11,326 nt of DNA from Candidatus Aminicenantes bacterium. GTDB taxonomy: Bacteria > Acidobacteriota > Aminicenantia > UBA2199. How positions within the stretch are numbered: position 1 is the first letter of the stretch; the number at the start of each line of letters is the position of its first letter. The notes under the pieces were generated by a model that worked only from the letters and a program-made list of their open reading frames with translations, had not been told where the DNA came from and searched no databases. The position numbers and the translations under genes were made by a program. Location of the stretch: the NCBI GenBank assembly GCA_026393795.1, contig JAPKZL010000050.1:1-11326 (forward strand), in the 5' to 3' direction. This document shows positions 1 to 11,326 of the stretch, piece by piece.

Positions 1-50
1 ATTTGCGTTCCCTACGGAAGAAAATCTCCACTGCATTTTTTTTGGACATT

Positions 51-157
51 GGAATTTGGAATTTGGAATTTTAGTCACACTATGGTTTCAGCAAGTTTGG
101 AATTCGCTGAAACCAACTAGTGTGACTATGGAATTTGGAATTTGTGATTTGGAATTT
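51..157. repeat. Composite element: (GGAATTT)x3 direct heptamer repeats (51-71), 20-bp imperfect inverted repeat AGTCACACTATGGTTTCAGC / GCTGAAACCAACTAGTGTGACT (73-92 and 106-127, 13-nt loop), then GGAATTT/GTGATTT heptamers x4 (130-157)
   Basis: Read directly from the sequence: tandem 7-mers on both sides of a long hairpin-capable palindrome, immediately upstream of rsmI. A T8 run lies at 36-43 just before it. Confidence 0.7.
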
Positions 158-180
158 AAGTCCTACGAGAGAACCATCTG

Positions 181-1005
181 ATGGCTCTCTACATCGTCCC
201 GACGCCGATCGGCAACCTGCAGGACATCACCGAACGGGCGGTCGTCGTCCTGCGCCGGGTCGACTTCATCATCGCCGAGGACAGCCGCTACTCGCAGAAG
301 CTTCTCAACCACTTCAACATCAAAAAACGGATCATCAGCCATTACCGTCCCAAGGAGGAAACGCAGGCGGAGAAGATCCTGGCCCTGCTCACCGGCCAGG
401 ACGGGGCTTTGATCACCGATTCGGGCACCCCGGCCATCTCCGATCCCGGCTTCATCCTGATCGCCAAAGCCATCGCACGGAACATCCCGGTCATCCCCCT
501 GCCTGGGCCGACCGCCTTTGTCCCGGCCCTGGTCGCTTCGGGCATCGATCCGCGCCGCTTCATCTTCCTCGGCTTTCCCCCGCGGGGACGAAACGACCTG
601 CACACTTTCTGCAAATCCCTGGCTCCCCTTCCCTATACCATGGTGTTTTACGAATCGCCGCGGCGCAGCGAGGAATTCCTGCGCAGCGCCGCCGCCGTGT
701 TCGGCGCACGCCCTTTCGCCCTGGCCAAGGAATTGAGCAAGAAGCATGAAACGATCATTCGCGGCCGTTTGGATGAATGGCCGCAGGCGCTGAAAGACCA
801 AACTATTCTGGGAGAAATCGTCATCGTCATCGCCGGCACCGGGGCCAAGGCGCACCCGGTCGAACCGCCGCCGCTGCTGCGGAGCATCGAGGACGTTTAC
901 GTCTATTTCCGCGAACGCCACGGCCTGGGTAAAAACTTGCTGAAGAAGATCCTCATGCAAAAGAAAGCAAAAAAAGCGGCCAAACGAGGTTCGGATGCCG
1001 GGTAA
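181..1005 (+). CDS. rsmI: 16S rRNA (cytidine1402-2'-O)-methyltransferase RsmI (tetrapyrrole-methylase fold)
   Basis: The N-terminus LYIVPTPIGNLQDIT, the DSRYSQKLL motif and the GTPAISDPG motif are hallmark RsmI signatures. The protein is 274 aa, a normal length for this family. Confidence 0.9.
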   Translation: MALYIVPTPIGNLQDITERAVVVLRRVDFIIAEDSRYSQKLLNHFNIKKRIISHYRPKEETQAEKILALLTGQDGALITDSGTPAISDPGFILIAKAIARNIPVIPLPGPTAFVPALVASGIDPRRFIFLGFPPRGRNDLHTFCKSLAPLPYTMVFYESPRRSEEFLRSAAAVFGARPFALAKELSKKHETIIRGRLDEWPQALKDQTILGEIVIVIAGTGAKAHPVEPPPLLRSIEDVYVYFRERHGLGKNLLKKILMQKKAKKAAKRGSDAG

Positions 1006-2125
1006 ACGTTTGGAACGAAACCACCGCCGGCAGCGGTTTTTTGGCGCCGCCCTCCTCCTGCTGCTCGCTTTGGGTGAACCGGGCTCCGCCCAGGACGAGG
1101 CCGCCGCCAAACCGCTCGAGCCGGCCCGCGGCGGCTTCGTGGTCGCCCCGGTCGTCTACTACACCCCCGAAACGCTTTTTTCATGGGGCATCGTCGGCAT
1201 CCATTATTTCCGCTTCGGCCGTTCCGTCGTCCCCTCCCGCCTTTCTCATTACCGCTTCAACCTGGTCCGCACCCAGAACAGGCAGACCATCGCCCAGGTG
1301 GACTACGAGCTCTACCTGGCCGGCGGCGCCATCCTGCTGGACGGCCAGGCGAAATACTGGCTTTACCCGGATCGTTTTTACGGCAGCGGCAACCGCAGCC
1401 TGGCACAGGACCGCGAAGACTTCAACGCCCGCAACTGGCGCCTGACGGCGAACCTCCAGCGCCGCTGGGGCGCGAACCTGTTCACCGGGATGCACCTGGA
1501 GATGTTCTCGCAAGCCATCACCGAAACCGCCGGCAACGGCCTGCTGGCCGCACGGGAGATCCCCGGCAGCCGCGGCGCCAGGCTGACCGCGATCGGCCTT
1601 TTCGGCAAGTGGGACAGCCGCGACAACACCTTCTCCGCCGGCAAGGGGGCTTATGGCGCGCTCTTGCTTAACTTTTTCCCCAAGGTGCTGGGCAGCGATT
1701 TTGCCTTCAGCCAGCTGACCCTGGACGCCAGGAATTACTTCCCTTTGGGCCGCGGCGCGGTGCTGGCCGTCCAGGCCATCGGCAAGACGACCTGGGGCGA
1801 GTGCCCGTTTCAGGCGCTGCCCATGTTCGGCGGCCTGAACCTGCTGCGCGGCTTCTACGAAGGCCGCTACCGCGATAAAAGCATGCTGGCCATACAGGCC
1901 GAGTACCGCCTGCCCTTGTGGCGGCGCTTCGGGTTGTGCGCTTTTGCCGGGTTGGCCCAGGTGCAGCCGCGGGCCGGGCTGCTGTCGCTGGCGGAATTTC
2001 ACCCGGCCGCCGGCGTCGGCCTGCGCTACAAGTTCAACCCGCGCGAGAACCTGAACGTCCGCCTGGACGTCGGCTTCGCCGACTCGTCCCCCGCCTTATA
2101 TCTCACCTTCGCCGAGGCATTTTGA
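995..2125 (+). CDS. Omp85/BamA-superfamily outer-membrane beta-barrel protein (Bac_surface_Ag-like, no POTRA domains)
   Basis: The ATG at 995 overlaps the rsmI stop by 11 nt and has GAGG 6 nt upstream. The N-terminus has a signal-like hydrophobic stretch, FFGAALLLLLALGEPGSAQD. The internal GGLNLLRGFYEGRY and AEYRLPL resemble the Omp85 loop-6 and barrel motifs. The C-terminal beta-signal LYLTFAEAF ends in Phe. Confidence 0.6.
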   Translation: MPGKRLERNHRRQRFFGAALLLLLALGEPGSAQDEAAAKPLEPARGGFVVAPVVYYTPETLFSWGIVGIHYFRFGRSVVPSRLSHYRFNLVRTQNRQTIAQVDYELYLAGGAILLDGQAKYWLYPDRFYGSGNRSLAQDREDFNARNWRLTANLQRRWGANLFTGMHLEMFSQAITETAGNGLLAAREIPGSRGARLTAIGLFGKWDSRDNTFSAGKGAYGALLLNFFPKVLGSDFAFSQLTLDARNYFPLGRGAVLAVQAIGKTTWGECPFQALPMFGGLNLLRGFYEGRYRDKSMLAIQAEYRLPLWRRFGLCAFAGLAQVQPRAGLLSLAEFHPAAGVGLRYKFNPRENLNVRLDVGFADSSPALYLTFAEAF

Positions 2126-2159
2126 CGATTTCACAAATAAAAACAATCTGGAGGATTCG

Positions 2160-3767
2160 ATGCGACGCATGCGAAACTGGTTGACTGTCTTGAGCCTGTT
2201 GATTTTCATCTGTATGCCGCTGGCAGCGGACGATATCTTCGCGCCGGTGAAGAAGGGCGAGTTGGACTCCGTTAAAACACTGCTGGAGAAGGACCCGGCC
2301 CTGCTGAATGCCCGGGGGGAATCCGACCGCACCCCCTTGCTGGAAGCCGTCCTTTCACGCCAGCCTGCCGTTTTTGAATTTCTGCTGGAAAAGGGGGCCG
2401 ATTTCAACCTGGTCAACAAGGAAGGCTTTGCCCCCGTTCATTTCGCCGCCTTCCTCGGGGAAACCGAGCTGGTCAAAATGCTCATTGCCAAGGGCGCTCC
2501 GCTGACCGTCAACGCCAACGTCATCGGGGCCACACCCCTCGACCTGGCCGTCAGCGCCGGGCGCAGGGAGATGGTCGAGCTGCTGATCGCCAAGGGGGCT
2601 CCGTTGAACCTGAAGGATAAAAAGGGCAACACGCCGCTGATCAAGGCTGTCCTGTCGGGGCGGGCGGAAATCGCCGGCCTGCTGATCCACAAAGGGGCCG
2701 CTGTCGATGAAAAAGACCAGATGGGCAGCACGCCGCTGCTGCTGGCCGCCCTGACCGGCCAGAAGGAGCTGGCGGCATGGCTGATCGAAAACAAGGCCGA
2801 CATCAACGCGGCCAACTCGCTCGGCGGCACGCCGCTCAGCGTCGCCGTCCGCGAGGGGCACCAGGAGGTCGTTGACCTGCTCGTGGCCAAGGGGGCGAGC
2901 AAGGATTTTCTCAAGCAGCCCGTCCTGGAAGGCGATTACCTGGGGCAGAAGATTCCCGGATTGGCGCCCGAGCGTTTCGCGCCGGGGACCGTATCGACCG
3001 AAAAAAGCGAATTGAACTCGGTTTTCAGTGCCGACGGCAAGGAGTTTTATTTTGCCGTCCAAAGCGGCCCAATGAAGTGGGTGATCATGGTGATGAAGCA
3101 GGAAAACGGCCGCTGGTCAAAACCGCTGCCGGCTTCGTTTTCCGGCCAGTACAGCGACGTCGATCTCTTCATCACCCCCGACAACAAGAGGCTGTTCTAC
3201 AGCTCCAACCGCCCGCTGGCGGAAAACGGAGCGGCCAAGAAGGATTTTGATATCTGGATGGTCGAGCGCACAACGGACGGCTGGTCAAAACCCAGCAATC
3301 CGGGCAGCCCGATCAATTCGGCCGAAGCCGAGTTCTATCCTTCGCTCACCGCGGACGGCACCCTGTATTTCCAGTCCCAGCGCCCGGACACTCTCGGCTC
3401 CAGGGACATTTACCGCTCCCGGCCGACCGACGGCAAGTATGAAAAAATTGAAAACCTCGGCGCCGCCATCAACAGCACCCTTTTCGAAGGAGACGCCCTG
3501 ATCGCGCCCAAGGAAGACTTCCTTGTTTTTTCGGTCGACCGCCCCGACAGCTTCGGCCAGGGCGACCTGTACATCAGCTTCCGTGATGCCAACGACGGCT
3601 GGACGACTCCGAAAAACATGGGCGACAAGATCAATTCCGAATACCACGAGAATTGCCCGATGCTCTCACCGGATGGAAAATTCCTGTTTTTCACCCGCAA
3701 CAACGACATCTACTGGGTGGACGCGCTGGTCATCAAGAATTTGCAGGGCGGCCAGCAGCCCCTCTGA
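2160..3767 (+). CDS. Secreted ankyrin-repeat (about 7 repeats) + PD40/TolB-like beta-propeller fusion protein
   Basis: GGAGG lies 7 nt upstream of the ATG. The N-terminal signal peptide is MRRMRNWLTVLSLLIFICMPLAADD. GxTPLxxAxxxGxxExVxxLIxKGA repeats recur between about residues 30 and 250. The C-terminal half carries PD40-type repeats: FSADGKEFYF, ITPDNKRLFYSS, LTADGTLYFQS, LSPDGKFLFFT. Confidence 0.8.
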   Translation: MRRMRNWLTVLSLLIFICMPLAADDIFAPVKKGELDSVKTLLEKDPALLNARGESDRTPLLEAVLSRQPAVFEFLLEKGADFNLVNKEGFAPVHFAAFLGETELVKMLIAKGAPLTVNANVIGATPLDLAVSAGRREMVELLIAKGAPLNLKDKKGNTPLIKAVLSGRAEIAGLLIHKGAAVDEKDQMGSTPLLLAALTGQKELAAWLIENKADINAANSLGGTPLSVAVREGHQEVVDLLVAKGASKDFLKQPVLEGDYLGQKIPGLAPERFAPGTVSTEKSELNSVFSADGKEFYFAVQSGPMKWVIMVMKQENGRWSKPLPASFSGQYSDVDLFITPDNKRLFYSSNRPLAENGAAKKDFDIWMVERTTDGWSKPSNPGSPINSAEAEFYPSLTADGTLYFQSQRPDTLGSRDIYRSRPTDGKYEKIENLGAAINSTLFEGDALIAPKEDFLVFSVDRPDSFGQGDLYISFRDANDGWTTPKNMGDKINSEYHENCPMLSPDGKFLFFTRNNDIYWVDALVIKNLQGGQQPL

Positions 3768-3786
3768 AAAGACGACTTAAACGGGC

Positions 3787-3817
3787 GGCAGCCGGCTGCG
3801 TTACGCATGCCGGCTGC
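3787..3817. terminator. GC-rich hairpin between convergent genes (candidate bidirectional terminator)
   Basis: GCAGCCGGCTGCG..CGCATGCCGGCTGC is an inverted repeat with a stem of about 13 bp and one bulge. It sits between the + gene ending at 3767 and the - gene ending at 3820. The T-rich flank is on the minus-strand side (GTTTAAGTCGTCTTTTC). Confidence 0.5.
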
Positions 3818-3819
3818 TG

Positions 3820-4590
3820 TCAATTCATAATCGACCGCTGGTCGTCCCTACCCGCAAACTCCTTGCCCAAGGTATATGCACGCTCCAGGTAGCCCCTCCG
3901 TGTGTCCTCGCCGACGGTGGGAACCCCGTAGAAATAGACATGCTCGACTTTTTTGACTCCCGGGTAGCGCAGTCCCCAGTCATCGATCATGCGCCGCATG
4001 GGCAGTTCCCAATCGGCCTTGTAATCTTTTTCGCTGAAAAGGGTGGTATTGATCACCAGCGCTTTTTCCTGGCGCAGCAGCGGCACCCTGCCGCTCGCGT
4101 CCCCTTGCCAGCCGACCGGCGTCAGGGCATAGGCGTCGCCGTAGGCAAAAACCCGCTCGAACCACCCTTTCAGGATGGCAGGAAAATGCAGCCAGTATAC
4201 CGGCGAGATAAAAACCAGTCCCTGGGCATTTTTGACTTTCTCCCACTGGGCCGTGACATCTTTAGGCCTGTGGCTGTGGATGAATTTCGCCACGGCCGGG
4301 AGATCCTTGTTGCGCAGCCAGCGTGAGGCCACGAACCTGCGCAAGGGGCCGCCGGCGGAGTCGATCACGTGCTGCTTGAGGTTCATTAGTTCAAGTATTT
4401 CCAGGGGCATGCTTTCGTGCACGTAGCTGGCAAAGTCCATGGTACGGAAGACGGGGTCGAAACGGATGGCGTAGAGGTCGACCACGTCGATTTCGTGGCC
4501 GGCATCCCGCAGTCCGGCGCTGAGACGCTCAAGGACGGCATGGCAGAAAGACTTGGGTTGCGGATGGGCGTAAACGATTAAAACTCTCAT
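3820..4590 (-). CDS. NAD(P)H:quinone oxidoreductase, NQO1/MdaB-like flavodoxin-fold (Flavodoxin_2 family)
   Basis: The true start is the ATG at 4590..4588, with an AAGGAG RBS 6 nt upstream on the minus strand. MRVLIVYAHPQPKSFCHAVLERL...DLYAIRFDPV is typical of FMN/FAD quinone reductases. The 184 extra N-terminal residues in the listed 440-aa ORF are low-complexity read-through. Confidence 0.8.
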   Translation of the reverse strand: MRVLIVYAHPQPKSFCHAVLERLSAGLRDAGHEIDVVDLYAIRFDPVFRTMDFASYVHESMPLEILELMNLKQHVIDSAGGPLRRFVASRWLRNKDLPAVAKFIHSHRPKDVTAQWEKVKNAQGLVFISPVYWLHFPAILKGWFERVFAYGDAYALTPVGWQGDASGRVPLLRQEKALVINTTLFSEKDYKADWELPMRRMIDDWGLRYPGVKKVEHVYFYGVPTVGEDTRRGYLERAYTLGKEFAGRDDQRSIMN

Positions 4591-4625
4591 TGACTGCTCC
4601 TTATGAAGTCGGTTTTGCGCATCAA

Positions 4626-5045
4626 TCAATACACGAATGGAACAAGTTTTTTCACCTGCGCCGCGTAGGCGGCAAAGCGCTCTCCGAAGGCTTGCTGCAA
4701 CCCCTTTTCCTCCAGGGCGATCAGGGGAAATATGATCGCCAGGTAGATCGCAAAAACCGCCAGGAGCGCCCCGGACTGGGTCAGGCAGAACAACCCGAAC
4801 GAAATACCCAGCGCCCCGGTGTACAGCGGGTTCCTGACCAGCCTGAAGGGTCCGCGGCTGACCAGATCGTCGTGGCGGCGCGGCGCGCTCCCCCCGAGCG
4901 GGTAGGTGCGGTGGTGAGCCATCCGCGGCCAGGGCATGATCAGCCTGTCGAAGATGGAGCCGGTCGCCAGGCGCTTGACGGCCACCAGCGCTGCCAGTAA
5001 GATCAGAATGGCTATCCCAAGTATGGTTTGATTGAATAGGTGCAT
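4626..5045 (-). CDS. Isoprenylcysteine carboxyl methyltransferase / phospholipid methyltransferase (ICMT/PEMT) family membrane protein
   Basis: The protein is hydrophobic and multi-TM. RLVRNPLYTGALGISFGLF and the C-terminal EEKGLQQAFGERFAAYAAQVKKLVP match the ICMT/PEMT signature. AAGGAGGAGGAG sits immediately upstream of the ATG at 5045. The gene is in a different frame from the over-extended 3820..5142 ORF. Confidence 0.7.
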   Translation of the reverse strand: MHLFNQTILGIAILILLAALVAVKRLATGSIFDRLIMPWPRMAHHRTYPLGGSAPRRHDDLVSRGPFRLVRNPLYTGALGISFGLFCLTQSGALLAVFAIYLAIIFPLIALEEKGLQQAFGERFAAYAAQVKKLVPFVY

Positions 5046-5056
5046 CTCCTCCTCCT

Positions 5057-5644
5057 TTATATTTGATCCGATTTTTTTGAATCATCCAAGTCTCCAGGTT
5101 GGCAGCTGCAACCCCCGGCTTCTCCATCAACCGCTTCTTCATCCTCGCTGCCGCAGCAGGAAACGGCTTGCTCCTCGCTTGCGCCCAGAACCGCCCCGGC
5201 CTCGGCTTTTGCCTTCTGGCAGGCGACGTCTCTTATCGCGCAAGCGATCTTTAGCGCCGCGAACATCTGCCCGTCCGTCGCCCCCAGGGCACGGGCGGCG
5301 TCCATGTGCCCCCTGACGCTGGTGCAGCAATTTACGGCATAGGCGGCGGCGATCGCCACGAGCTCGCGCAGCATCGTCGGGGCGCCGTCCGGTTCGGGGA
5401 TGGCCGGGCTCCACTCGGCCTGAGTCAAGCCGCCGGCCCTGGCCATGATGCCGGTCGCCGCCATCCTTACCCTGGCGGCATCACCTGCGGCTTGGCGGAT
5501 ATCTCCTTCGCTCGCTCCGGCGCCGGCCGCTGCCCGCAGGTGAAACTTGATGCAGGGCAGGCAGCCGCTGGCAACAGATGCTCCCACGGCGATGATCTCC
5601 TGATCTTTGTCGCCAAGGACAGGGTCTTCTTTGTGTTTGGTCAT
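5057..5644 (-). CDS. Carboxymuconolactone decarboxylase (CMD)/AhpD-like family protein with Cys-rich acidic C-terminal tail
   Basis: GCLPCIKFH is a CxxCxxxH AhpD-core motif, and a second CMD-like half carries NCCTSVRGH. The C-terminal tail is SCCGSEDEEAVDGEAGGCSCQPGDLDD. The track ORF starts at a TTG at 5665. I prefer the ATG at 5644, 6 nt after a GGGAGG RBS, though the ATG at 5647 is also possible. Confidence 0.6.
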   Translation of the reverse strand: MTKHKEDPVLGDKDQEIIAVGASVASGCLPCIKFHLRAAAGAGASEGDIRQAAGDAARVRMAATGIMARAGGLTQAEWSPAIPEPDGAPTMLRELVAIAAAYAVNCCTSVRGHMDAARALGATDGQMFAALKIACAIRDVACQKAKAEAGAVLGASEEQAVSCCGSEDEEAVDGEAGGCSCQPGDLDDSKKSDQI

Positions 5645-5761
5645 CATGAACCTCCCTGGATTCAATGGTAAGGACGAAATAGGGAATGCAATGGATACAT
5701 GGCCGGGAATCCGGCCCTTGGAGGAGGTTGGGAAAATCAGGGAAGATGCGTTGCCGGGGGG

Positions 5762-6331
5762 TTACTTTTTTGGTTCGCAGACCAGGACGCCGCGTTCGTC
5801 CAAAGAGAATTTGCAGCCGGATGCCAACATGGTTTTCAGCTGGCGCCGGGCGCGGTGGAGCCTGATCTTGACCGTGCTGAGCGGCAGGGCGAGGAGAGCG
5901 GCGATCTCAGGGCCGCTCACTCCGTGCATGTCATGAAGTAGAATCACCGAGCGGAAGGCATCGGGAATATCAGCCAGAAAGCGATTGACACAGGCGCTCA
6001 TTTGCTCCTGCTCGAGGGCTTGCTGCATCGAAGGCAAATCGGGGTCCGGAGGGTCGACGGCGGCGAGGTCAATCCCGGATTCCCTGGATGCGAAACGGGC
6101 CCGCTGCCGCAGCCGGTCGAGGCATACGTGGGTGGCGACACGATAGAGCCATGAAAGCAAGGCGCCCGGATCGCGCACCGTTTCGCGCTCGCGGTGGGCG
6201 CGGAGGAACGCCTCCTGGGTCAGGTCCTCGGCCTCGGCCGAGTCGCGGACCATGCCCCGGACATAGCGGAAGACGCGCTCGTAGTTTTTTTCGAAAAAGC
6301 CGGAAATGTCATCCGCTGGAGAGGCAGGCAT
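5762..6331 (-). CDS. ECF-type RNA polymerase sigma factor (sigma-70 family) with short Cys-containing C-terminal extension
   Basis: Region 2 is EDLTQEAFLRAHR and region 4 is the HTH GPEIAALLALPLSTVKIRLHRARRQLK. A 20-aa tail ASGCKFSLDERGVLVCEPKK follows. The likely start is the ATG at 6331 with a GGAGA RBS 5 nt upstream. The track ORF begins at an upstream GTG at 6364. Confidence 0.85.
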   Translation of the reverse strand: MPASPADDISGFFEKNYERVFRYVRGMVRDSAEAEDLTQEAFLRAHRERETVRDPGALLSWLYRVATHVCLDRLRQRARFASRESGIDLAAVDPPDPDLPSMQQALEQEQMSACVNRFLADIPDAFRSVILLHDMHGVSGPEIAALLALPLSTVKIRLHRARRQLKTMLASGCKFSLDERGVLVCEPKK

Positions 6332-6400
6332 ATTTTTCTCCTGGCAATTTAGGAGGTGCGTCACGCGTTTCTATCATGAGCACAATTTTAGGGAATCAGC

Positions 6401-6416
6401 TGCAAAAATGCAACCA
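6401..6416 (-). promoter_or_regulatory. Candidate sigma-54 (-24/-12) promoter TGGTTGCATTTTTGCA upstream of the ECF sigma gene
   Basis: The minus-strand sequence has GG and GC at the correct 10-nt spacing and an exact TTGCA -12 element. It lies about 70 nt upstream of the ATG at 6331. A sigma-54 activator gene is present in the window. Confidence 0.3.
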
Positions 6417-6433
6417 GTGAAAACAGTTGACTT

Positions 6434-6467
6434 TGACGGTGCGCTCTTGCCTCACCTTTTCACCCTT
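6434..6467 (-). repeat. 34-bp copy (33/34 identical) of the rnpB P10-P12 conserved core, direct repeat of 8984-9017
   Basis: TGACGGTG[C/A]GCTCTTGCCTCACCTTTTCACCCTT occurs at both sites. The minus-sense sequence AAGGGTGAAAAGGTGAGGCAAGAGCGCACC matches the universal RNase P RNA motif. The flanks do not continue the rnpB homology. Confidence 0.7.
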
Positions 6468-6542
6468 GCTGAACAGAGCACAGACGGCCGAGCAGTTTTT
6501 TCTTCAGACATATCGGAAACTCCGGAACCTGCCGTCGGAGGT

Positions 6543-8615
6543 TTACTTTTTGGGCAACTTCTGGCCGGGGATCCCCGGCTCCGAGGGCTTGATACCCGGC
6601 TTGCGTTCAATTTCGGCCACGGGCTTTTTTTCGACCGCTACGATGCCTTTCGTTATATTGCCAAGGACGGCAGCCATGAGGCCTTCGGATGTGCCGCCGC
6701 CCTTCTCGCCGCCGATGACCAGGATGGCGGGCATGATCTTGATGCCATTATCGGCAAGGGCCTTGATGGCGTTGACGACAGCAGTGGCTTGCGGACCGAG
6801 GGCTTGCACCTGGCGCTCGTAGGCTTCGGCGCTGGCCATACCGATCGCGCGGACTTCGACGCCTTTGGCATTGCCCACATCGGTGAGAAAACTGGCCTCG
6901 CCTTGACCTTCCACCTTGCGCGCATCGGCCTGGTTCTTCCTGATCTCGATCCCAACCTTGGACTTGGCCAGCTCGGCCTGCATTTCGGCGGTTCCCTTGC
7001 TCTGTTCCATGGCGATGCGCTGGTCCTGAGCGTCTTTTTGTTTCTGGAAGGTCGTGATTTCCTGGTTGGCAATTTCGCGCTGGGTCAGGACAGTCACCAT
7101 CTGCGGTGGCAGGATGACGTCCTGGATGTAGACCCCGCGGGTCTCCACTTCGTATTCGTTCAACTTGTTTCGGATGTGCTCATTCGCCTCTTCCTGCACT
7201 CCCTGCCGGGTCTCGATAAAGCGGATGGCGGGCATGCTCTGGAGCTTGTCACGGAAGTGGTTGCCCACGGCAGCCTGAAGCACCTCGTTGACCAGGTTGG
7301 TCATGGTGCCGACGATGCTGATCACCTTCGGGGCCTTCGTGTCCGGTACGTGGATCTGGACCTGGAGATCGATGTTGAAGATGAAGCCTTCGCGGCTCTT
7401 GGCCTCGATCTGCTTGAGCTCCTGATCCAGGTTGTGCGCCTTGGAGGTGGCCTCAGCCCAGTTCAGGGTCAGGATGCAAGTCGGAACAATCTCGGCATTG
7501 TAGATGTGTGGGTTGATGGGGTATTTCCCGGTGCGCAAGGGTTCTTCCCAAATGCCGCGATGGCCGGGCCTCACGAGACTGCCGAACTTGAAAGTCTCTC
7601 CGGACGTGTCCTCGGTCGGAAGCCCGACATAGGATTTGACCACGGCGACCTCGCCCTGTTCGATGACCAGCATGGGGACAATCTCGATCTCGACAAGGAA
7701 AGGATTGAGAATGTAGGCGCCGTAGAGCAGCGGGTCGTGTTGCAGACCTATTTTTCCGCCGTTGTCCAGGAATGCCTGGAAGTCCTGGTAGTTATTGTGG
7801 AGATTGTTCTTGTTGCCAAGGATGACTTCGATGAGCTCAGAGTTCCTTACCGGGTTAGCTTTCGTCGCTGCACGTTCAATTTTTGCGATATCGTCATAGC
7901 CGCCGAGGCGCGAAGCAATGTCGCCCGAAGGTAAAGGATCGCCTTCGAGGGCCGTGATGATGCCGATGGCGTCTATAAGTCTATCCACGCCGTTTTTTGC
8001 GTTTCTCTCGAACAAGGGAGCGATGCGGGTGACGTTCAATTGGCCTTCGTGCTTGAGCCCGAAGTTCACGAAGCTGAGTCCGCCGCGTTCACGGGAAGCC
8101 CGCTGGAGCTCCGGAGAGACCGGCAGACCATAAACATTTTTCTTGGTGATGACCAGAAATCCGACCGGATGGATGGGAAGGGTCTGGCCTGGGGAGAGGA
8201 CCCGCCGCTGGACGCCCTTTTGGCCGCCATTCTCGATGAAAACGCGGAGGTCGGTGAAATTACCAAACACCTTCTTGTCGACAGCCGACTTGGCGCCGGT
8301 GGGAAGGGACGATCCGACCTGGGCAATGACGACCCCGATCTCGCCGGCGGGGATCTGAATCCAAGGATACTTGTCCACTTTATAGACGAGCCAGAACTTG
8401 AAGCGCCAGCCGGGCATGAGCAGTTCCGATTGGTAACCGGCTTCACCGTTGAATGCAATGACGTTGTCTTTCGACAGTTTCTTGAAGCCGAACCTCTTGG
8501 TGACAAGACCGACTTCGGTCGGGCCGATCATCCTGATCGAGGGCCAGATGAGGAAGACGAAAAGAAAAATGAAAGAACCAGCATAAAGAAACGGGGTGAT
8601 CGGAGTCAAATCCAT
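6543..8615 (-). CDS. Flotillin-family (SPFH/band-7, YqiK/FloT-like) membrane protein with duplicated SPFH region
   Basis: The ATG at 8615 has an AGGAGG RBS 6 nt upstream. The N-terminal TM is PFLYAGSFIFLFVFLIWPSI, followed by the PTEVGLVTKRFG SPFH start. A second SPFH-like segment leads into an Ala/Glu/Gln-rich coiled-coil (AEMQAELAKSKVGIEIRKNQADARKVEG). The C-terminus LADNGIKIMPAILVIGGEKGGG is typical of flotillins. Confidence 0.85.
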   Translation of the reverse strand: MDLTPITPFLYAGSFIFLFVFLIWPSIRMIGPTEVGLVTKRFGFKKLSKDNVIAFNGEAGYQSELLMPGWRFKFWLVYKVDKYPWIQIPAGEIGVVIAQVGSSLPTGAKSAVDKKVFGNFTDLRVFIENGGQKGVQRRVLSPGQTLPIHPVGFLVITKKNVYGLPVSPELQRASRERGGLSFVNFGLKHEGQLNVTRIAPLFERNAKNGVDRLIDAIGIITALEGDPLPSGDIASRLGGYDDIAKIERAATKANPVRNSELIEVILGNKNNLHNNYQDFQAFLDNGGKIGLQHDPLLYGAYILNPFLVEIEIVPMLVIEQGEVAVVKSYVGLPTEDTSGETFKFGSLVRPGHRGIWEEPLRTGKYPINPHIYNAEIVPTCILTLNWAEATSKAHNLDQELKQIEAKSREGFIFNIDLQVQIHVPDTKAPKVISIVGTMTNLVNEVLQAAVGNHFRDKLQSMPAIRFIETRQGVQEEANEHIRNKLNEYEVETRGVYIQDVILPPQMVTVLTQREIANQEITTFQKQKDAQDQRIAMEQSKGTAEMQAELAKSKVGIEIRKNQADARKVEGQGEASFLTDVGNAKGVEVRAIGMASAEAYERQVQALGPQATAVVNAIKALADNGIKIMPAILVIGGEKGGGTSEGLMAAVLGNITKGIVAVEKKPVAEIERKPGIKPSEPGIPGQKLPKK

Positions 8616-8695
8616 AATGAACCTCCTAAAAACCAGAAATTCTTACTCAATGCCCCGGCAAACCTCGGCATAGTGATCCTCTCCCTACAATTGGA

Positions 8696-8724
8696 ATTTT
8701 AAGGCAATTCGATTTAAATTACAA
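8696..8724 (-). promoter_or_regulatory. Candidate sigma-70 promoter for the flotillin gene (TTGTAA-N17-TAAAAT)
   Basis: On the minus strand the -35 TTGTAA sits at plus 8719-8724 and the -10 TAAAAT at plus 8696-8701, with a 17-nt spacer. That is about 80 nt upstream of the ATG at 8615. Confidence 0.35.
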
Positions 8725-8799
8725 TATCGATCAGCGTTTTTTTAGGTCGGGTAAAAGGCTTCCGGCATATTGTCCGCCGGTTTCCAGAAGAGCGATGAA

Positions 8800-9189
8800 T
8801 AATGGGAGCAGCAGGGTGCGGACTGTAAGCCGGGTTCTGTCTAGAAGAATCATTTATCTGCCCGCGGCATTACTGCCGCGGTCCAGCAGCTAACCCGAGG
8901 GCCTCGGCCGGGAAAGCCTCGAACGCCCTCTGTTAAGCCTTGCTCCGGATGGGGTTTGTCTCAGTCCTGCCTGTCGCCAGGCGTGACGGTGAGCTCTTGC
9001 CTCACCTTTTCACCCTTACGGCCGCCGTTGCCGGCGGCTCGCGGTCTGTTCTCTGTGACACTGTCCTGTTCCCCCGTCTGAGCGGGGGAAAATCCCTGTT
9101 GGGGATCATCCTTCCCTGCGGAGCCCGGACTTTCCTCCCCTCTCAGTTAAGAGAGAGGCGATTCTTCATCCGCACCCTGCTGCTCCTTC
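8800..9189 (-). ncRNA. rnpB: RNase P RNA, bacterial type A
   Basis: The minus-strand sequence contains the P4 halves GGAAAGUCCGGGCUCC (plus 9120-9135) and ACAGAACCCGGCUUA (plus 8826-8840). It also contains AAGGGUGAAAAGGUGAGGCAAGAGCUCACC (plus 8988-9017) and CCGGAGCAAGGC. An 18-bp P1 helix pairs GGAGCAGCAGGGUGCGGA (plus 9169-9186) with UCCGCACCCUGCUGCUCC (plus 8805-8822). The total is about 390 nt. A TGnTATAAT extended -10 sits immediately upstream at plus 9190-9198. Confidence 0.9.
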
Positions 9190-9262
9190 ATTATACCAGG
9201 AGATTCGATTTTTTGATAGAGGTTGCGGCGCAGCAGGCCGGTTACCTGACGACGATATACTC
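9147..9262 (-). pseudogene. Remnant/duplicate of the 3' end (Fis-type HTH and C-terminus) of a sigma-54 activator gene, overlapping the rnpB promoter and 5' end
   Basis: The minus-strand frame reads ...[32 protein letters not shown]. The true activator C-terminus at 10353-10470 reads ...[36 protein letters not shown] identity is about 81% over 85 bp, with two perfectly conserved blocks of 17 and 21 bp and the stop codon in the same position. Confidence 0.55.
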
Positions 9263-10285
9263 CTTGATTTTGGCGAAAGTCTTCTCCTTGATGCCTTTGA
9301 CCTTCATAATGTCTTCGATCTTGGCATAAGGGCGTCCGGCGATGATCGCCTTGGCTTTGACCGGGCCGATACCCAGGAGACCGTCGAGTTGCTCCTCGCT
9401 GGCTTTGTTGATGTTGATCGTCTCGCCGGGCTTGAGCTTGGGCGAGACGGCCGTTTCATCATCCGCTTCAACGGTCACCAGGTTTTTGATGTCGTCGAAT
9501 CTCGCCTGGCCGATGCCGCTGACATTCTTAATGTCCTCGACGTTCTTGAAAGGCCGGGCGGCGATGATCTTCTCGGCAAGCTCCGGTCCGATGCCGGGGA
9601 GTGCTTCCAGGGCGGCTTTATCGGCGCTGTTCAGGTCAACAGGTCCGGCGGCTGTTGACTGCTTGGCGGCCGGCGAGGTCTGTTTAGCGGCAGCCTTGGC
9701 TTCGCTCTCTATCTTTTTGCCGGCCTTGGCTGCTTTAACCGTCACCAGGTCCTTAAGTTTGTCGAATGTCGCCTGGCCGATGCCCTTGACATTTTTCAGG
9801 TCATCGACGTTTTTGAAGGGACGGGCGGCGATGATGTTTTCAGCCAAGGTTGAACCGATTCCCGGCAGGTTTTCAATGGCCGCCTCGTCGGCGGTGTTGA
9901 GATTGACGATCTCCCCGGCAACGGTTTTATCGTTTCCCTTGGCGGCTGTTTCGGTCTTGGCTTTGGCCTTGGTCGCGGTTTCGGCCGTTTTAGCGGCCTC
10001 GGCCGCCTCGACAGTCACCAAGTCCTTGAGATCGTCGAATTTTGCCTGGCCGATGCCGCTGACGTTTTTCAGGTCAGCGATGCTTTTGAACGGACGGGCG
10101 GCGATGATCTTCTGGGCCAAGGAAGGGCCAACGCCCTTCAAGGCCTCGAGCTTGGCCAGGGTGGCGGTATTCAGGTTTATTTTTTTCGCTTTCGCCGCGG
10201 CGCCAGCTGGCATGGCCAGCGAACCCAAGAGCAAGCCAAGAACCACCAGGGAAAAAACAAAATGACAACAAATTCTGTTTTTCAT
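9242..10285 (-). CDS. Secreted protein with four tandem ComEA-like helix-hairpin-helix (HhH) DNA-binding modules
   Basis: The signal peptide is MKNRICCHFVFSLVVLGLLLGSLAMPAGAAA. Four repeats of xNLNTAxxxxLExLPGIGxxLAxKIIAARPFKxxxDLKNVxGIGQAxFDxLKxLVTV are separated by Ala/Lys/Thr-rich linkers. The RBS is GAGGT. Confidence 0.85.
   Translation of the reverse strand: MKNRICCHFVFSLVVLGLLLGSLAMPAGAAAKAKKINLNTATLAKLEALKGVGPSLAQKIIAARPFKSIADLKNVSGIGQAKFDDLKDLVTVEAAEAAKTAETATKAKAKTETAAKGNDKTVAGEIVNLNTADEAAIENLPGIGSTLAENIIAARPFKNVDDLKNVKGIGQATFDKLKDLVTVKAAKAGKKIESEAKAAAKQTSPAAKQSTAAGPVDLNSADKAALEALPGIGPELAEKIIAARPFKNVEDIKNVSGIGQARFDDIKNLVTVEADDETAVSPKLKPGETININKASEEQLDGLLGIGPVKAKAIIAGRPYAKIEDIMKVKGIKEKTFAKIKEYIVVR
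9245..10180 (-). repeat. DNA-level tandem repeats (about 267-273 nt period, 3 close copies + 1 divergent) encoding the HhH modules
   Basis: GTCACCAGGT.. units recur at 9474, 9741 and 10014. The flanking sequences are highly similar (..GCCTGGCCGATGCCGCTGACATT..GGCGGCGATGATCTTCTC..). Confidence 0.8.
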
Positions 10286-10321
10286 TATTTTATTACCTCA
10301 TTCGCTATTTTGATTAAAAAT

Positions 10322-10351
10322 ATTATATTTTGCCGATCCAGTAAAAGTCAA
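10322..10351 (-). promoter_or_regulatory. Near-consensus sigma-70 promoter TTGACT-N18-TATAAT driving the ComEA-like gene
   Basis: On the minus strand the -35 TTGACT is at plus 10346-10351 and the -10 TATAAT at plus 10322-10327. This is about 30 nt upstream of the ATG at 10285, with the -35 abutting the stop of the upstream activator gene. Confidence 0.6.
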
Positions 10352-10352
10352 A

Positions 10353-11326
10353 TTAAGAAATCGGCGATTCTTCATCCGCGCCCTGCGGCTCGACCATGAT
10401 GCCGAGGGACGCGATTTTTTGATAGAGGTTGCTGCGCGGGAGGCCGATCTCGCGGGCCGTCTTGGCCACGTTGTACTCGTATTCCTTCAGCTTCTGTTCC
10501 AGGTAGGCCTTTTCCGCCTCGTTCTTGAACTCCTTCCAATTCTTGATCTGGAGCAGCGCCATTTCGCCGCCGGCGCTGCTGCCATTGATGTAATCGGGCA
10601 GATCCTGGCTGGTGATCGGATCGGTGCGGCACATGATCAGGAGCCTTTCCACCAGGTTGCGCAACTCGCGCACGTTGCCCTTCCAGGGATAATCCAGCAG
10701 CCGGGAGAGCGCCTCGGGGGAAAATACCTTTTTCTTGTAATTGTTCTCCTCGGAAAAGTAATTGATGAAATGCTCGATCAGCAGCGGGATGTCCTCCTTT
10801 CTTTCGCGCAGCGCCGGCGAATGGATCGGCACCACGTTCAGACGGAAAAAGAGGTCTTCGCGGAAATTGTTCTTCCTGATCTCCTCCTCCAGGTTCTTGT
10901 TGGTGGCCGCGATGACGCGGACGTTGACCTTCTTGATCTCCGGCGAGCCCACCGGCTGCACCTCGCCCTCCTCGAGCACGCGTAAGACCTTGGCCTGGGC
11001 CTTCAGGCTCAGGTCGCCGATCTCGTCCAGGAAAATGCTGCCGCGGTGGGCGCTTTCGAACTTGCCGATCTTTTTCTCATAGGCCCCGGTGAACGATCCT
11101 TTTTCATGCCCGAAAAGCTCGCTCTCGATCAGCTCGTCGGGAATGGCGGCGCAGTTGACCTGGACGAAACGGTTCTGGCTGCGGGCGGACTGCTGGTGGA
11201 TCAGGCGGGCGATGAGTTCCTTGCCGGTGCCGCTGTCGCCGGAGATCAGGACGGTGGAATCGCTGCGGGCCACGCGCCGTATCGTTTCCAGCAGGGCTTT
11301 CATGACCGCCGATTGCCCCACCAGCT
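10353..11326 (-). CDS. Sigma-54-dependent transcriptional activator (NtrC/EBP family), 5'-truncated by the window edge; AAA+ sigma-54 interaction domain + Fis-type HTH
   Basis: The Walker A is [14 protein letters not shown] is the GAFTGA-type sigma-54 contact loop. The arginine-finger region is RVIAATN...ELRNL, and the C-terminal HTH is [19 protein letters not shown]. The N-terminal sensory or receiver domain lies beyond position 11326. Confidence 0.9.

Follow-up and report, generated by a model that had tools for sequence, protein, structure and literature searches.

What would a bacterium do with a protein built of four consecutive ComEA-like DNA-binding modules? The question is raised by a minus-strand gene in a stretch of 11,326 nucleotides from a Candidatus Aminicenantes bacterium (contig JAPKZL010000050.1 of assembly GCA_026393795.1, positions 1 to 11,326; hereafter the window), whose 347-residue product carries four helix-hairpin-helix (HhH) modules behind a signal-peptide-like N-terminus. 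On balance, its sequence, its modelled structure and the behaviour of studied ComEA proteins favour, with modest confidence, an exported and most likely periplasmic protein of the ComEA type that would bind double-stranded DNA (dsDNA) multivalently and without sequence specificity. The initial annotation of the window had also arrived at a multivalent dsDNA binder, and by analogy this still appears the most reasonable reading; its suggestion of an extracellular or matrix role fared less well, nothing favouring that location over the periplasm.

The open reading frame (ORF) represents a genuine gene, as judged from the ORF listing and from matches to Pfam and NCBIfam profiles, and NCBI annotates an identical protein as 'helix-hairpin-helix domain-containing protein'; an exact-sequence look-up did not find the protein on other contigs. 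Four matches to Pfam HHH_3 (PF12836) were detected, for a whole-protein E value of 1.2e-73. Scored singly, the modules reached 60-73 bits each against the gathering threshold of 27 bits, covering positions 2-65 or 4-64 of the 65-position model, which upheld the earlier identification of four HhH/ComEA modules. No domain type besides HhH was recognized with Pfam, and neither an oligomerisation nor an SLBB-type domain was found with these models. The modules had been presumed equivalent; instead, they comprise three of one type (A-type, modules 1-3) and a distinct, strongly conserved C-terminal one (B-type, module 4). Compared over 58-codon cores, modules 1-3 are 67-72% identical among themselves in protein sequence, 70-74% in DNA and 50-59% at third codon positions; the corresponding values for module 4 against modules 1-3 are 40-41%, 57-58% and 41-45%. 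The linkers had been described as rich in Ala and Lys, which is true of linkers 1 and 2 (33 and 31 residues, each with 11 Ala and 6 Lys) but not of linker 3 (16 residues). Linker 1 differs in length between relatives, and in linker 3 residues P282, P286 and G287 are invariant, with K283 and L284 nearly so, among 13 relatives.

An AlphaFold model run on a 73-sequence alignment has four four-helix domains (residues ~33-94, 124-184, 213-274 and 281-347) at values of the predicted local distance difference test (pLDDT) above 90, joined by linkers (residues 95-123 and 185-212) at pLDDT ~30 and by a short hinge (residues 275-280). Foldseek ranked ComEA of Geobacillus stearothermophilus first (8DSS; root-mean-square deviation (rmsd) 1.3 A, 48% identity over 66 columns) and the ComEA-related protein of Thermus thermophilus next (2DUY; rmsd 0.5 A, template modelling (TM) score 0.84), followed by structures of PsbU. 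The best matches in a sequence search of the PDB were 2DUY (E 1.3e-12), 8DFK and 8DSS, all of them aligned to residues 280-346. Module 4 keeps the side chains of ComEA-type DNA contact, namely the Lys three residues past hairpin 1 (in GIGPVK) and the GIKEKTF motif of hairpin 2. In ComEA of G. stearothermophilus, K166, K195 and T196 are modelled DNA contacts and the equivalent lysines of the Bacillus subtilis protein have been mutated (K164, K193), while Vibrio cholerae ComEA needs K62/K63 (PMC9747964, PMC3879209). The GhG hairpins are intact in all modules, with the single exception of hairpin 2 of module 4, which reads G-I-K, and modules 1-3 have K, T or R near the second ComEA contact site.

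The N-terminus opens with MKNR, continues through a hydrophobic stretch of ~21 residues to P-A-G-A, and is followed by AAKAKK. It was this segment that the initial annotation had read as a signal peptide, and its charged start, hydrophobic core and small-x-small pattern do recur in 214 of the 234 scorable family members. Export by the Sec pathway with a cut near Ala29 is probable, and would leave a basic mature protein of 318 residues (~33 kDa, pI ~9.3) with a Lys-rich N-terminal tail and linkers. Both the Omp85-family protein encoded in the window and the TonB-dependent receptor encoded in one relative are consistent with a diderm envelope. Canonical ComEA had been pictured as held by a membrane anchor, in contrast to this protein; that is the case in Gram-positive bacteria only, and the diderm form is a soluble, periplasmic DNA ratchet, a single stand-alone domain freed by cleavage of its signal peptide (PMC9747964, PMC3879209). 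Because diderm ComEA has a cleaved signal peptide itself, the presence of one does not set the HhH protein apart from a classical competence receptor.

From these features a mode of action can be proposed. Transcription would be driven by the gene's own sigma-70-type promoter, and Sec export with removal of the signal peptide would yield a protein in which four compact two-hairpin HhH domains are strung on disordered, positively charged linkers. The C-terminal B-type domain would correspond to the canonical DNA-binding unit of ComEA, with the Lys-rich linkers and the three A-type domains contributing extra, probably weaker, contacts to the DNA backbone. Several DNA segments could in this way be held or bridged by a single molecule. 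In a diderm cell, DNA entering the periplasm would be trapped and compacted in a ratchet-like manner, and the protein may in this way take part in DNA uptake. Its multivalency would be covalent, achieved by tandem repetition in place of the oligomerisation domain of Gram-positive ComEA, which is required there for cooperative binding and uptake.

Several observations weigh against this proposal. Modules 1-3 have Leu at the site of V. cholerae K63 and B. subtilis K164 (Leu or Thr among A-type modules at the first of the modelled contact sites), and two of them are acidic, module 2 with a pI of 5.1 and module 3 with one of 4.8; given the Leu at the lysine site and this acidity, the DNA affinity of the A-type modules themselves may be low. 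The whole protein does exceed the cut-offs of both NCBIfam ComEA models (207.7 bits against 152.35 for TIGR01259; 158.1 against 53.1 for TIGR00426), but it does so because four module scores add up: single modules reach 50-62 and 40-51 bits, respectively, and of the 120 positions of TIGR01259 only the HhH part (positions 53-120) is matched. Competence genes (comEC, pilus genes or dprA) are missing both from the window and from the 143 neighbour genes at 37 related loci, and the candidate of a conserved operon or competence neighbourhood was rejected, four close relatives showing three different contexts. PsbU shares the fold, and we know of no DNA-binding role for it. It is also possible that the hydrophobic segment of ~21 residues acts as an uncleaved membrane anchor. 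As to the missing lysine, Leu occupies the same site in T. thermophilus 2DUY and in many single-module homologues, and DNA binding by the A-type modules is for this reason uncertain rather than excluded.

Much of what can be said about the array comes from its relatives. The gene is a member of a large, catalogued, unstudied family and an architectural variant of ComEA. When 1.84 billion representatives (clusters at 50% identity) were searched exhaustively with HMMER, there were 33,692 matches at E<=0.001 and 2,484 at E<=1e-10, with 180 clusters at E<=1e-30. Among the 120 best matches of an indexed search, four modules predominate (77 proteins), with three in 29, five in eight, six in four and two in two. 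Most multi-module proteins found, from several phyla, have the layout of a signal peptide, a variable number of A-type modules and a terminal B-type module, although the cross-phylum scan favours this layout because it was seeded with motifs of modules 1 and 4. Carriers include Aminicenantes, Nitrospirota, 'Deltaproteobacteria' (metagenome-assembled genomes (MAGs) of Desulfobacterota type), Planctomycetota and Thermoanaerobaculia, with complete genomes available for an Aminicenantes carrier (OY970122.1) and for the culturable Singulisphaera sp. PoT (NZ_CP186274.1; L020), and databases annotate the proteins as 'competence protein ComEA' or 'helix-hairpin-helix domain-containing protein'. No experimental study of a tandem ComEA-type family member was found in the literature on tandem or multi-domain ComEA and on ComEA in Aminicenantes. 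Much longer HhH arrays or fusions exist, as indicated by a protein of 2806 residues with 14 matched HhH stretches in the representative library (P0122) and by several other multi-module proteins of 500-1200 residues. Carriage of the array by plasmids or phages was considered and rejected: only single-module matches were obtained, none covering >=80% of the query.

The initial annotation had regarded the underlying DNA repeats as still highly similar, and consequently as the product of recent expansion or homogenisation. This could not be sustained. The copies, spaced 267 and 273 nt apart, are 63-72% identical without gaps, and Tandem Repeats Finder gave no report for the array. Moreover, the nearest match of each module is the module at the same position in relatives (81-95% for module 1 with module 1, 79-93% for module 4 with module 4); B-type modules are 60-84% identical to module 4 across phyla, and the A and B types stay distinct classes throughout. 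The array is thus old, since its modules match same-position modules of relatives and not their neighbours in the same protein. The low third-position identity given above, the silence of Tandem Repeats Finder and this positional orthology together dispose of recent tandem duplication and of concerted evolution. Copy number does vary, as had been anticipated: three-module relatives (P0013 and P0015; 84% identity) are without module 2, and five-module relatives (63-64% identity) have an additional internal module. Judging from these alignments, such changes represent internal modules gained or lost within an old array.

The promoter match proved as good as originally claimed. Of the sigma-70-type sites in the window, TTGACT-18-TATAAT comes closest to the consensus, agreeing at 11 of 12 positions; by first-order Markov simulations, a window should contain 0.003 matches of this quality. 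When five loci whose preceding genes are unrelated are aligned over this region, the TTGAC is invariant, and the distance from the end of the -10 element to module 1, 142 nt in the window, is 142, 142, 143 and 146 nt in L001, L006, L005 and L013, respectively. This invariance, together with the kept position of the -10 element, makes it very likely that the promoter is functional in the Aminicenantes clade. A strong promoter as a family-wide trait beyond Aminicenantes was rejected, the enrichment there being weak: matches at >=10 of 12 positions occur in 14% of the regions ahead of the genes and in 3% of controls.

Other genes do recur beside the family at the 37 related loci, namely YidB-like genes (12 by Pfam) and genes for MscL (4) and S1/P1 nuclease (3). 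By iterative search, a YidB-like gene (PF20159) was located within ~1.5 kb of a multi-module HhH gene at 22 distinct genome loci from several phyla, including L006:9155-9490, L008-L010, L016, L025, L027-L029, L032 and L033; it is absent from the window. An obvious signal peptide was not seen in the one YidB-like sequence inspected (L006), and nothing directly relevant was found in the literature on YidB function.

With promoter and neighbours described, the alternatives can be weighed. The most durable, though in our view unlikely, is the one preferred by the initial annotation, according to which extracellular DNA would be captured or scaffolded at the surface or in a matrix, or held as a nutrient for nucleases, with no transformation machine involved. 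The promoter looks strong and constitutive, with no space for an upstream regulator site before the neighbouring gene, competence genes are not linked at the 37 related loci, S1/P1 nuclease genes adjoin family members at three of them, and many lineages of sediment and soil have the family (Aminicenantes, Nitrospirota, Planctomycetota and 'delta' MAGs of Desulfobacterota type). However, a Sec signal alone would take the protein only as far as the periplasm, and neither a secretion-system gene nor a sorting signal, lipobox or anchoring domain was found in the protein, the window or the 37 loci; the N-terminus of the four-module protein itself has no lipobox. Nor is the nutritional version truly separate from the periplasmic ComEA-type reading: the two overlap because known nutritional DNA uptake uses the same ComEA-type periplasmic step, and the S1/P1 nuclease neighbours have been counted in favour of ComEA-type DNA binding as well.

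Still less probable is the alternative topology in which the N-terminal segment remains uncleaved and holds the four modules at the inner membrane, facing the periplasm, in the manner of Gram-positive ComEA. Such anchored ComEA proteins exist, and the uncharged stretch is long (~21 residues in the window protein, with a family median of 22); against this, a small-x-small motif (A-G-A, or A-x-A in relatives) after the core and a helix-breaking Pro or Gln are present in most relatives, and the diderm ComEA proteins studied to date are cleaved and soluble. The least probable, that the A-type modules or the whole protein bind no DNA and serve as envelope modules resembling PsbU or the GspK subdomain, with module 4 at most a tether, can draw on matches of each module to Pfam PsbU (28-37 bits, cut-off 24.5) and T2SSK, on PsbU structures as the next-best structural matches after ComEA, on the absence from the A-type modules of the lysine that is critical to ComEA of V. 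cholerae and of B. subtilis, on the acidity of modules 2 and 3 and on the conservation of A and B types as separate classes across phyla, but it has to contend with HHH_3 and ComEA model scores far above those for PsbU in every module, with backbone-contact GhG hairpins that are intact in all A-type modules, with a PsbU equivalog cut-off exceeded only by the sum of the modules, and with the Leu that the T. thermophilus ComEA-related protein also has at the lysine site.

How the gene came to lie where it does can be traced in some detail. The initial annotation had placed it between a flotillin gene and a sigma-54 activator gene; both neighbours stand, but rnpB, encoding the RNase P RNA, had been missed between the HhH and SPFH/flotillin genes. 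It lies directly downstream of the HhH gene, after a 64-nt spacer that follows the HhH stop codon. Because no terminator-like site was found on the minus strand between 9242 and 9177, read-through from the HhH gene into rnpB is possible. Metagenome contigs were screened with a sequence pattern of the 5' end of rnpB, which recovered 26 related loci, and at 17 of these (L087-L092, L095-L101, L106-L108 and L110) the sigma-54 activator ORF runs uninterrupted into rnpB and overlaps it by 31 nt (e.g., ORF 988-2382 and rnpB 2352-2720 in L088). The activator orthologues of the 17 are 77-89% identical in 15, 56% in one and of broken frame in one. At the uninterrupted loci, the codons TCT CTT GGT ATA ATG (SLGIM) carry the rnpB -10 element, and the activator stop codon lies inside an early rnpB hairpin.

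In the window, two copies of a 94-nt direct repeat, 81% identical, bracket exactly the HhH promoter and ORF (9241-10352, 1112 bp). Copy A, in the activator gene, reads GGC ATC, with the same amino acids encoded and TATAAT lost by synonymous changes; copy B, proximal to rnpB, retains TGGTATAAT and has lost the reading frame. In the ancestral state, promoter and 5' end of rnpB were part of the activator ORF; after the duplication, the codons survived in one copy and the promoter in the other. The locus offers a tidy case, found in nature, of how a protein-coding gene and an RNA gene that once overlapped became separated.

The HhH gene itself appears elsewhere without this setting. Window positions 10360-9242 are 84-85% identical in DNA to L001:5926-7044, L002:5926-7026 and L003:86-1186, where FecR and Mem_trans genes flank the gene, and the homology covers promoter and ORF only, ending at the stop codon. 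Since it covers these alone, the gene behaves as a self-contained promoter-and-ORF unit, in at least three contexts. At L005, with an HhH protein 73% and an activator 85% identical to those of the window, the HhH-to-rnpB junction is the same and four extra genes lie upstream of the HhH gene. Adjacency to rnpB is no family trait, having been seen only in the window and L005. Other inserts at the same junction comprise TPR-ankyrin genes (L109 and L111) and, in L094, genes for a C5-methylase, SNF2 and NOV_C together with a partial rnpB duplicate. In this lineage, both rnpB and the junction ahead of it resemble a hot spot for insertions (L005, L086, L093, L094, L104, L105, L109 and L111). An integron-type or integrase-driven cassette was rejected, there being no attC-like sequence (1 nt separates the stop codon from the repeat), and neither the window nor the variable stretches of L005, L094 and L109 yielded an integrase. 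Nothing directly relevant was found in the literature on rnpB as an integration site.

The positions of the features described are collected in Table 1.

Table 1. Features of the HhH gene, its product and the adjoining rnpB region, in window coordinates.
Feature	Position	Strand	Remarks
ORF, 347-residue four-module HhH protein	9242..10285	(-)	ATG start; TAA stop 9242-9244
Signal-peptide-like N-terminus (residues 1-29)	10199..10285	(-)	hydropathy and motif; probable cleavage after Ala29
Module 1 (residues 36-93), A-type HhH2 domain	10007..10180	(-)	HHH_3 68.8 bits; pLDDT >90
Linker 1 (residues 94-126), Ala/Lys/Thr-rich	9908..10006	(-)	pLDDT ~30, residues 95-123
Module 2 (residues 127-184), A-type	9734..9907	(-)	HHH_3 73.1 bits
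Linker 2 (residues 185-215), Ala/Lys-rich	9641..9733	(-)	pLDDT ~30, residues 185-212
Module 3 (residues 216-273), A-type	9467..9640	(-)	HHH_3 64.6 bits
Short linker 3 (residues 274-289), PKLKPG motif before module 4	9419..9466	(-)	conservation in 13 relatives
Module 4 (residues 290-347), B-type terminal domain	9245..9418	(-)	HHH_3 60.3 bits
-35 element TTGACT	10346..10351	(-)	begins 1 nt past stop codon of sigma-54 activator gene
-10 element TATAAT, 18-nt spacer	10322..10327	(-)	ends 36 nt upstream of ATG
Shine-Dalgarno-like GAGG	10296..10299	(-)	10 nt upstream of ATG; (G)GAG(A/G) at same place in relatives
Direct-repeat copy A, 3' end of sigma-54 activator ORF (helix-turn-helix tail)	10353..10446	(-)	coding
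Direct-repeat copy B, rnpB promoter and first 31 nt of rnpB	9147..9240	(-)	non-coding
rnpB extended -10 element TGgTATAAT	9190..9198	(-)	within 64-nt spacer; kept at every related rnpB locus
rnpB, bacterial class A RNase P RNA, full length	8810..9177	(-)	cmscan 267.6 bits, E 5.9e-87

Further observations concern rnpB and its surroundings. Partial rnpB duplicates are present at L094 (7409-7692) and L104, and at L086, L088, L093, L102 and L111 rnpB is directly followed by Omp85-like and RsmI-like genes. Window positions 2126-8800 (~6.7 kb) look like additional variable content; they encode ankyrin/PD40, flavodoxin-like reductase, PEMT-like, CMD-family, extracytoplasmic function (ECF) sigma and SPFH/flotillin proteins. 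Between the flotillin and ECF sigma genes, a second RNase P-like match was obtained on the minus strand (6415-6503, 89 nt, 24 bits). It was rejected as a second rnpB, only a 34-nt core (6434-6467) being 97% identical to P11-P12 (8984-9017) with non-homologous flanks, and this piece may be a remnant of rearrangement. The minus-strand ORF at 3820-5142 is over-extended in its longest form, the flavodoxin-like Pfam match starting from an internal MRVLIVYAH (~4590); the 180 codons upstream of it, probably non-coding, run into the PEMT-like gene, which has the same orientation. The contig begins, ahead of the RsmI-like gene, with two 34-nt copies made of TGGAATT-like heptamers (43-76 and 129-162) that are 85% identical. 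In the relatives, the orthologous HhH gene of L005 seems to carry a frameshift where its 5' end runs through a series of T residues (L005:5943-6001), the called protein, P0012, being truncated and starting MLGPLAV; the stretch is rich in homopolymers, and faulty assembly is the probable cause. A Moco/tungsten riboswitch upstream of the TonB-dependent receptor gene near the relocated HhH gene (L001:3309-3521; L002:3135-3347) is unrelated to the HhH finding.

In current models of DNA uptake, diderm ComEA is a single free domain that acts as a Brownian ratchet, and oligomerisation is a speciality of Gram-positive bacteria. A cross-phylum family with two to six ComEA-type domains, one of them of a conserved terminal type, suggests that many uncultured diderms solve multivalency differently, and the ComEA fold may also serve a related task in them, such as scavenging of environmental DNA. 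Carried further, and here quite speculatively, the tandem modules could do covalently what oligomerisation does for ComEA, in an arrangement in which a high-affinity B-type anchor and one to five low-affinity A-type domains on charged tethers form a periplasmic DNA-condensing 'winch' that would supply diderms with pulling force; in Aminicenantes, in addition, the gene may move as a promoter-and-ORF unit into an rnpB-linked hot spot, its insertion there having been accompanied by the duplication that separated overlapping protein and RNA genes.

Comparison with characterized systems places the protein nearest to ComEA. Of the less similar, GspK (PF03934/NF037980) is matched only in its 63-position HhH-like T2SSK subdomain, at 24-33 bits per module, and the 60.7 bits obtained with NF037980 compare with a cut-off of 130; identity as GspK was rejected, since a full-length protein with the pilin N-terminus and both domains is not matched. 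PsbU is the 12-kDa extrinsic protein of photosystem II, a single-domain subunit. It has the same small HhH-type fold and short 'xxPY/F' inter-hairpin loop as the modules, each of which lies above the Pfam PsbU cut-off (PF06514); at 27-36 bits against the equivalog cut-off of 85 (NF002708), and in an Aminicenantes MAG, the modules do not qualify as PsbU. To our knowledge photosystem II is not known in Aminicenantes. The short 'GRPY' inter-hairpin loop of T. thermophilus 2DUY is common to module 4, whereas 2DUY is a single-domain protein.

Diderm ComEA/ComE of V. cholerae and Neisseria resembles the window protein in having a Sec signal (a putative one in the window protein), a two-hairpin ComEA-type domain and no other domain type; a lysine like K63 of V. 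cholerae follows hairpin 1 in module 4, and both proteins are expected in the diderm periplasm. Diderm ComEA has one domain, however, whereas the window protein has four, three of them of the divergent A-type without this lysine; the window and related loci have no competence neighbours, and the promoter conforms to a plain sigma-70-type consensus. In place of the architecture of a ComEA receptor, with one C-terminal domain behind an export signal or behind an anchor and oligomerisation domain, four domains are found. The tandem ComEA-like HhH family of the databases includes the window gene, although the YidB-like follower gene seen in many other phyla is absent from the window. The best structural match is provided by Gram-positive ComEA (B. 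subtilis; G. stearothermophilus 8DFK and 8DSS), with an atypical HhH domain without a connector helix in both. There, multivalent, cooperative DNA binding is essential and is achieved through an oligomerisation domain and a membrane anchor, whereas in the window protein it would be built into the chain itself as covalent repeats.

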